Shown: positions 58,386 to 59,615 of the stretch, in pieces
How the letters are laid out: each line of letters starts with the position of its first letter
How positions within the stretch are numbered: the stretch's first letter is position 1
DNA from: Escherichia coli
GTDB taxonomy: Bacteria > Pseudomonadota > Gammaproteobacteria > Enterobacterales > Enterobacteriaceae
NCBI RefSeq assembly: GCF_036507355.1
Contig: NZ_AP027877.1
Direction: 5' to 3' (one strand)
DNA length: 64,000 nt
The notes under the pieces: model-generated
What the model was told of the DNA's origin: nothing
Database searches by the model: none
What the model saw: the letters and a program-made list of their open reading frames with translations, nothing else
Translations under genes and position numbers: made by a program

Positions 58386-59615
58386 TTATCCCTGCGGCTG
58401 GTTACTCACCAGCCGCGACATCGTCTCGAGCGAATCCGTTCTTAAGATATAAAGTCGTTTTAGTAACAACGGATTATCCCCCGGTTTTACTTTGCCTTTC
58501 ATGGTTGTCACCGCCAGGTGAAATCCGGCATCGTTTGCTGCCTTCACGGCTTTGTCATTAAATCCGCCAAACGGATACGAAAGATACCAGACATGCGGAT
58601 TAAATTGCGCCAGAGCGCGGCGTGAACGTGCAAAATCAAACAGAATATTGTGCTCACTACGACTCAGTAATATGGGGCGGCGATAACCATCTACCCGATG
58701 CAAAAAATGGGTATGTGACTGAAAATCAAAAACATCGCGAATTTCGTTAAGCTCAGAAACGCTCATAAATTGCAGCGATTTTGGGTTCCACTTCTGCGGG
58801 TGACGTTTGATGCGTGAGGTAACAATAAACGCCGTCGCCTTCATGCCATATTGTTTCAACACAGGATACGCATAGCGGCTCACCGACTTGAGGCCATCAT
58901 CAAAGGTAATCACCACCGCTCGCGCAGGGAGATTGATCTTATTCTTCACGTAACCTTCCAGCTGCACCATGCTCAGTGTCGCGTATCCCCTGTCGCGCAG
59001 CCAGGCCATCTGGTTATTGAAAGCGCGTACCGAGGTGGTCGTCGAAGTATGGCGAAAACGGGTGTTTTCTTCGTCGCGCAGAATATGGTGATAAGTTAGC
59101 ACCGGAAGGCCATTATCGGGTTGGGCATCCAGCGCGCTGATATAGGCCAGTCGATCGCCAATACGGACCTGATACCAGGTTTGATTTAACCTGTCTTTCA
59201 GTTTATGCAAAATCGGGTAGCGCAAATTGTCCGCCAGTACCCCAAATGGCGCACTGCCCACACTCGGCGCGTTATAGACCGGCGTATCTTTCCAGGTAAC
59301 TAAGTTCTGATTACTCAGCGGCTTGTTGAGGTCACCCAAACCGTCTTCAACTTTTTGTCGCCCCTGAACCGGCTCGAGATGCCCTTTATCGATAAACCCT
59401 TTACCAAAGCCAAAATTAAATGCGTAATAACTTGCGGCAGTGGGCTCCACGGCAATGATTTATCCGGCCCGAATATTCCCCACGGTCACCATCTTGTCGC
59501 CAATTTGCGCCCAGACCGCAGCATTTTCGATGGTTTGCATATAACGGGCAGGTAACGCGGCACTGACACTTGCGGTAAACAGCATCAGCAGGAGAATAAC
59601 AGCTTGTTTGTACAT
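58386..59615 (-). pseudogene. yadE: Polysaccharide deacetylase family protein YadE, interrupted by in-frame TAA at codon 51
   Basis: Minus-strand frame from ATG 59615 encodes signal peptide [23 protein letters not shown]...NIRAG then TAA (59462..59460); same frame continues [14 protein letters not shown]... for 354 codons to stop at 58386; total 410 codons. Confidence 0.8.

Follow-up and report, generated by a model that had tools for sequence, protein, structure and literature searches.

The window analysed here is a 64,000-nt stretch of Escherichia coli DNA (contig NZ_AP027877.1), in which yadE has yadI on one side and the convergent panD on the other, the arrangement found in K-12. The gene is read on the minus strand from an ATG at 59615 to a terminal TAA at 58388..58386, a frame of 410 codons including the stop, and is interrupted by a lone internal TAA at 59462..59460 (Table 1). 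Fifty-one sense codons precede this triplet and 357 follow it, making it codon 52 of 409 (Q52*). The mutated base is window position 59462, which has changed from C to T on the coding strand and from G to A on the plus strand (C154T of yadE). On recount, the coordinates of the frame, its ATG and its internal TAA, as well as the 410-codon total given in a preliminary description of this DNA, proved exact, and the N-terminal signal peptide has the sequence given there, continuing into ALP beyond the cleavage point. Two counts in that description are corrected: the stop had been assigned to codon 51, one codon short of its actual place, and the 354 codons said to follow the stop are those of the ORF that opens with the GTG at 59450, not of everything downstream of the TAA. 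The source GenBank record enters the two halves of yadE as separate hypothetical proteins, with BED23800.1 (VEE46_35680) bearing the product name 'hypothetical protein'. The exact 51-aa and 354-aa products correspond to BED23801.1 and BED23800.1, both located on a 4.64-Mb chromosome.

Table 1. Coordinates of the disrupted yadE gene, its parts, and other variant loci in the window.
Feature	Position	Strand	Basis or record
yadE reading frame, disrupted; pseudogene by nonsense mutation	58386..59615	-	Sequence and alignments
Premature ochre stop TAA, codon 52; ancestral CAA (Gln52)	59460..59462	-	Alignments and genome counts
Remnant N-terminal ORF, 51 codons	59463..59615	-	GenBank BED23801.1, 'hypothetical protein VEE46_35690'
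Downstream ORF, 354 codons from GTG (codon 56), without signal peptide	58386..59450	-	GenBank BED23800.1, VEE46_35680
Predicted signal peptide, codons 1-19, cleavage motif VSA↓A	59559..59615	-	Read from sequence
CE4 polysaccharide deacetylase domain (Pfam PF01522), codons 228-366, intact, 3′ of the stop	58518..58934	-	Profile match
cdaR, with in-frame deletion (junction after 20916)	20734..21843	-	
yad chaperone-usher fimbrial operon, yadN to yadC	about 47291..54488	+	
rpnC	56820..57728	-	

Ancestral codon, frequency and authenticity of the stop

Among the 5,426 complete E. coli genomes searched, 5,422 have yadE as an uninterrupted gene of 409 codons, so the frame with its internal stop is not a chance pattern of open reading frames. 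We aligned the window gene with yadE of K-12 (b0130; 98.2% nucleotide identity) and of the closest complete genome, NZ_OZ197100 (99.6% identity). The alignment is gap-free and colinear, and codon 52 is CAA (Gln) in both references, which identifies the lesion as a single C>T transition, Q52*, and bears out the CAA-to-TAA nonsense change that had been proposed from the window alone. The K-12 MG1655 gene resembles that of the window in its yadI-yadE synteny, convergent panD, 409-codon frame, signal peptide and PF01522 domain, but has CAA instead of TAA at codon 52 and differs at four other residues (A119V, I150V, S171P and N355K). In total, the two genes differ at 22 positions including the stop, with 17 of the other 21 being synonymous, while the nearest allele differs from that of the window at 4 positions.

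Allele frequency was counted by megablast using a 55-nt query with the mutated base at its centre, in which each 28-mer seed must contain that base. A C is found at this position in 5,413 of the 5,426 complete genomes and a T in a single one, strain 2013C-4282 (1/5,414 informative genomes, or ~0.02%). The Q52* allele is already in public records, and in this RefSeq genome PGAP has labelled the gene a pseudogene, citing an 'internal stop' (NZ_CP027579.1, C6996_RS13160). The preliminary description had considered that reference strains might carry the same TAA within an annotated shorter gene; the sole RefSeq carrier does have the TAA, but as an annotated pseudogene rather than as a shorter gene.

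Such a rare allele (1/5,426 complete genomes), together with the lack of a 100% yadE match among RefSeq complete genomes, is what would be expected if the TAA were a sequencing or assembly error in a strain that truly carries CAA and an intact yadE, an alternative also raised in the preliminary description. Against this, a contig from sequencing run SRR32181686, which may stem from the same isolate or laboratory, contains an identical yadE with the TAA included (0 differences in 1,230 bases) and, over 5,749 bases of the locus, shows a single difference. At least three contigs, in addition to a 4,643,937-bp E. coli chromosome, also encode the exact 354-aa product. Furthermore, the change is a substitution and not a homopolymer indel of the kind that long-read errors usually produce, and when 58 K-12 coding sequences were mapped onto the window, only yadE had a premature stop, with the other 57 intact. 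Because the SRR32181686 assembly has the identical yadE allele, sequencing error is disfavoured, and on these sequence comparisons it is an unlikely cause of the TAA; an intact gene hidden behind an erroneous stop is highly improbable. Comparison with this assembly indicates that the lesion is real rather than an assembly artefact.

Across the whole gene, compared with K-12, no secondary frameshift or stop is found in the window yadE besides the TAA, a lack of further decay that fits a recent inactivation. When the mutation arose in the window lineage is nevertheless uncertain, since a public contig described below (L006) has the same local haplotype. A decaying, Shigella-like genome was rejected as a setting for the lesion, given that there are no IS elements in the ORF list and no other stops in the 58 mapped genes. 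The feature is a pseudogene by nonsense mutation, one that is real, rare and recent.

YadE and the predicted effect of the stop

YadE is the product of an uncharacterised y-gene and is predicted to be exported (PMC2672614; bioRxiv 10.1101/2025.02.18.638797). Deletion of yadE results in aggravating genetic interactions with genes of the LPS and lipid A pathways (PMC2672614; bioRxiv 10.1101/2025.02.18.638797). A K-12 yadE deletion mutant has been constructed and studied, which shows the gene to be dispensable (PMC2672614). Transcription of the gene starts from a promoter of its own that works under many conditions (PMC12133099), and it overlaps convergently with that of panD (PMC12288877). K-12 YadE matches PF01522 (Polysacc_deac_1) across residues 228-366 with an E-value of 1.8e-21, which places it in this family, and the same domain is recorded on the 354-aa downstream product. 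YadE shares the CE4 deacetylase fold region with PgaB and IcaB, the poly-beta-1,6-GlcNAc N-deacetylases of CE4, but differs in its N-terminal region and is encoded outside a pga or ica operon. Its matches to the NCBIfam models TIGR03938 (E = 4e-30) and TIGR03933 (E = 5e-28) are partial and are alike for the full and truncated forms. Scoring far under the curated cut-offs, with 104.6 versus 321.9 bits for TIGR03938 and 98.1 versus 248.35 bits for TIGR03933, YadE is not a PgaB/IcaB equivalog. Nor does it have the features of a lipoprotein, as there is no lipobox, there are 0 Cys residues in YadE, and the signal peptide ends in VSA↓A, which is of the signal peptidase I type. In the K-12 b0130 name, 'putative polysaccharide deacetylase lipoprotein', the lipoprotein label looks wrong when set against this sequence. 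A pseudogene also named 'yadE' in Yersinia (PMC11078800) was set aside, being an unrelated trimeric autotransporter.

Only 12% of YadE is encoded upstream of the stop, which sits 33 codons past the signal-peptide cleavage site, and the catalytic domain is located entirely downstream. In the mechanism we propose, a single spontaneous C>T change would have converted Gln52 (CAA) of yadE to an ochre TAA in the window lineage. Translation from the native ATG would stop after 51 residues, made up of the 19-residue signal peptide and 32 more, leaving the CE4 domain (residues 228-366) neither made nor exported and the gene a loss-of-function pseudogene. The mutation would persist because yadE is dispensable. 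As the next gene, panD, is convergent, no polar effect on neighbouring genes is expected. The strain is almost certainly without the YadE enzyme, a loss of function that we infer from the position of the stop, and a recent loss-of-function pseudogene created by a C>T change at Q52* is very probably the correct explanation of the locus as a whole.

Downstream translation would offer the mutated gene one way to remain functional. The in-frame GTG at 59450 (codon 56) is only 9 nt downstream of the TAA, with the entire CE4 domain intact beyond it, and E. coli lacI and phage T4 rIIB provide known examples of restarts after nearby nonsense codons. By analogy with these cases, low-level reinitiation at this GTG is conceivable, where ribosomes ending at the TAA may occasionally restart to give a 354-residue protein. 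Such a product would be scarce because of the weak ribosome-binding site at the GTG, where the Shine-Dalgarno interaction is both weak and poorly spaced (-3.6 kcal/mol at 12-nt spacing, whereas rpsB, yadH and yadI reach -6 to -12 kcal/mol with spacings of 5-7 nt). It would also be made without a signal peptide and would be cytoplasmic, apart from any envelope substrate. The other route, readthrough or suppression giving a full-length exported protein, has to contend with the identity of the codon: UAA does not encode selenocysteine or pyrrolysine, and both release factors read it. The stop is also not conserved, with the allele occurring in 1/5,414 informative genomes (1/5,426 overall, against a C in 5,413), as opposed to what a programmed feature would require; programmed recoding was not found and programmed readthrough is rejected. 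That yadE still functions, whether as an active cytoplasmic deacetylase or as a full-length exported one, is extremely improbable, and loss of function remains our preferred reading. The importance of this loss is small beyond annotation, where yadE should be recorded here as one pseudogene (Q52*) in place of two hypothetical proteins. As a naturally occurring yadE null, the strain could be used in the study of an uncharacterised envelope deacetylase.

Recurrence of nonsense alleles in yadE

Further carriers of Q52* were traced through public contigs with the exact 51-aa peptide, and their backgrounds were compared pairwise over about 5.9 kb. The TAA is truly present at yadE codon 52 in contigs L005, L006 and L007. 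The window and contig L004 form one lineage, while L007 matches K-12 MG1655 exactly apart from C154T, and L005 belongs to a K-12-like relative with 37 differences from K-12. L006 has the local yadE haplotype of the window and is possibly identical by descent; its TAA was possibly acquired by recombination with the window haplotype. The yadE of 2013C-4282 has codon 52 changed from CAA to TAA in the same way, but on a far more divergent allele (75 differences in 1,230 bases), which points to an independent origin. Here, private SNPs at nt 135 and 213 flank the stop and rule out an imported tract of more than 78 bp. Spread of the TAA by recombination is rejected for both L007 (K-12 plus 1 nt) and 2013C-4282 (SNPs at nt 135 and 213). 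The same TAA arose at least four times, in the window lineage, L007, L005 and 2013C-4282. Contigs L008-L014 were rejected as extra carriers, as each ends with the wild-type 'CA' or before the variable base.

Counts of contigs with exact truncation peptides appear at first to single out several yadE codons, with 52 for Q52*, 49 for Q84*, 151 for R86*, 32 for Q87*, 25 for Q103* and 38 for W108*, against 0-2 contigs at control lengths. Searched in this way, yadH, yadG and can return equal or larger numbers, including at lengths that no stop could yield, and most of these matches are flagged 'partial'. Contigs end preferentially at common SNPs, for example at the third base of CAA/CAG codons, which confounds the metric, and a hotspot drawn from these counts (codons 52-108, 25-151 contigs) is rejected because the control genes show the same contig-end confounding. 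Public short-read contigs L008-L014 end at polymorphic bases in codon 52 of yadE (nt 154 and 156), and L022-L028, L033-L034 and L037-L041 likewise end at polymorphic bases; contig ends of this kind produce 'partial' proteins identical to nonsense-truncated ones and inflate truncation counts. A general caution follows for large assembly collections: contigs broken off at polymorphic bases inflate the counts of truncated peptides, so that the repeated appearance of a nonsense allele in public records is by itself no evidence of a hotspot or of selection.

Sequence related to yadE is also present on plasmids NZ_CP036244.1, NZ_CP076694.1 and CP044307.1. A yadE 3′-end fragment of about 240 nt (nt 989-1230, 93.8%) is carried by E. 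coli plasmids of about 147 kb, and a homologue with 80% identity by a 149.5-kb plasmid. Several plasmid-collection records that contain the full yadE are 0.4-4.9 Mb in size and are probably chromosomes or chromosome fragments. Plasmid copies of yadE were rejected as a source of contig breaks, since the full-length matches are megabase-scale records; the true plasmid fragments consist only of nt 989-1230 or of 80% homologues, far from codon 52.

To replace the confounded metric, only verified stop-terminated contigs were counted, among roughly the 24 longest for each peptide. Real stop-terminated contigs number about 10 for yadE Q52* and about 10 for Q84* (each of the ~24 longest), and about 23 of the 24 read for R86*, while the controls yadG Q96* and yadH Q60* have 4 and 5, respectively (each of the ~24 longest). 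Each of these five stop alleles is found in at least two backgrounds, and all three yadE sites include K-12 with a lone C>T. Contigs L015, L020, L021 and L007 contain loci identical to K-12 MG1655 with single C>T stops (Q52*, Q84*, R86*), and for R86* the K-12 background accounts for 15/24 contigs read. Public E. coli runs are very numerous and include mutagenised and evolved K-12. The runs with K-12-identical Q52*, Q84* and R86* may come from a laboratory subline of K-12, or several, or from experiments in mutagenesis or evolution.

Recurrence of the same C>T in at least four independent backgrounds could reflect a mutational hotspot at codon 52, or positive selection for yadE loss that gives rise to convergent adaptive stops. 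Such a reading would also account for the 2-5 times more stop contigs at yadE sites (about 10, 10 and 23) than at control sites (4 and 5). A further parallel is found in S. Typhimurium ST313 sublineage 2.2, where a Trp>stop mutation in the yadE orthologue is fixed (PMC3407126, PMC11018118). As in the window, the orthologue was lost by a single nonsense transition in a natural lineage, but, compared by description, the species, the codon and the base change (G>A at Trp) all differ. Several observations argue against both versions of this reading. Q84* (about 10) and R86* (about 23/24) recur equally with or more often than the stop at codon 52, and the control genes yadG and yadH also have recurrent real stops. 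The mutated base, in the context GGCCGGA[C]AAATC, lies outside any CCWGG (Dcm) motif, and within 300 nt on either side no repeat of at least 8 nt, whether direct or inverted, contains it; with no repeat and no motif, a templated or Dcm-type mutation is rejected. The allele occurs at a frequency of ~0.02% among complete genomes, and truncation at contig ends confounds the raw numbers of contigs. Given the huge public sampling of E. coli, we infer that a few hits are expected for each tolerated transition.

Codon 52 of yadE is not a site-specific mutational hotspot, and the wider proposal of a hotspot or of convergent adaptive stops is very unlikely. Instead, the repeated stops are put down to the great depth at which a dispensable gene has been sampled, with an excess in yadE that is at most modest, and Q52* is an ordinary gene-inactivating mutation, recurrent, in a gene the cell can do without. 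Recurrent adaptive or strongly relaxed loss of yadE across the Enterobacteriaceae is a related idea that draws on Q52*, Q84*, R86* and further independent nonsense alleles of E. coli, together with the Salmonella ST313 Trp>stop and a rate 2-5 times that of neighbouring dispensable genes. We consider it unlikely; if true, it would imply that YadE has a fitness cost in some niches, laboratory culture of K-12 included.

Other variants in the window

Apart from yadE, differences from K-12 were also noted at cdaR, the yad fimbrial operon and rpnC (Table 1). In cdaR, an in-frame 48-nt deletion affects K-12 codons 310-326 and lies between two copies of the 8-nt direct repeat CGCTGGCG, giving a product of 369 aa versus 385. 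A junction-spanning query found this deletion in 0/5,426 complete E. coli genomes, and it is a second private lesion of the window lineage, one that may affect the C-terminal part of the regulator. The yad fimbrial operon has 69-85% nucleotide identity to K-12, while the genes flanking it are 95-100% identical, and the whole operon is a strongly divergent allele. RpnC is 302 aa in length, compared with 300 in K-12 and 290 in both NZ_OZ197100 and L006, a variation in length that corresponds to an indel polymorphism at the 3′ end of the gene.
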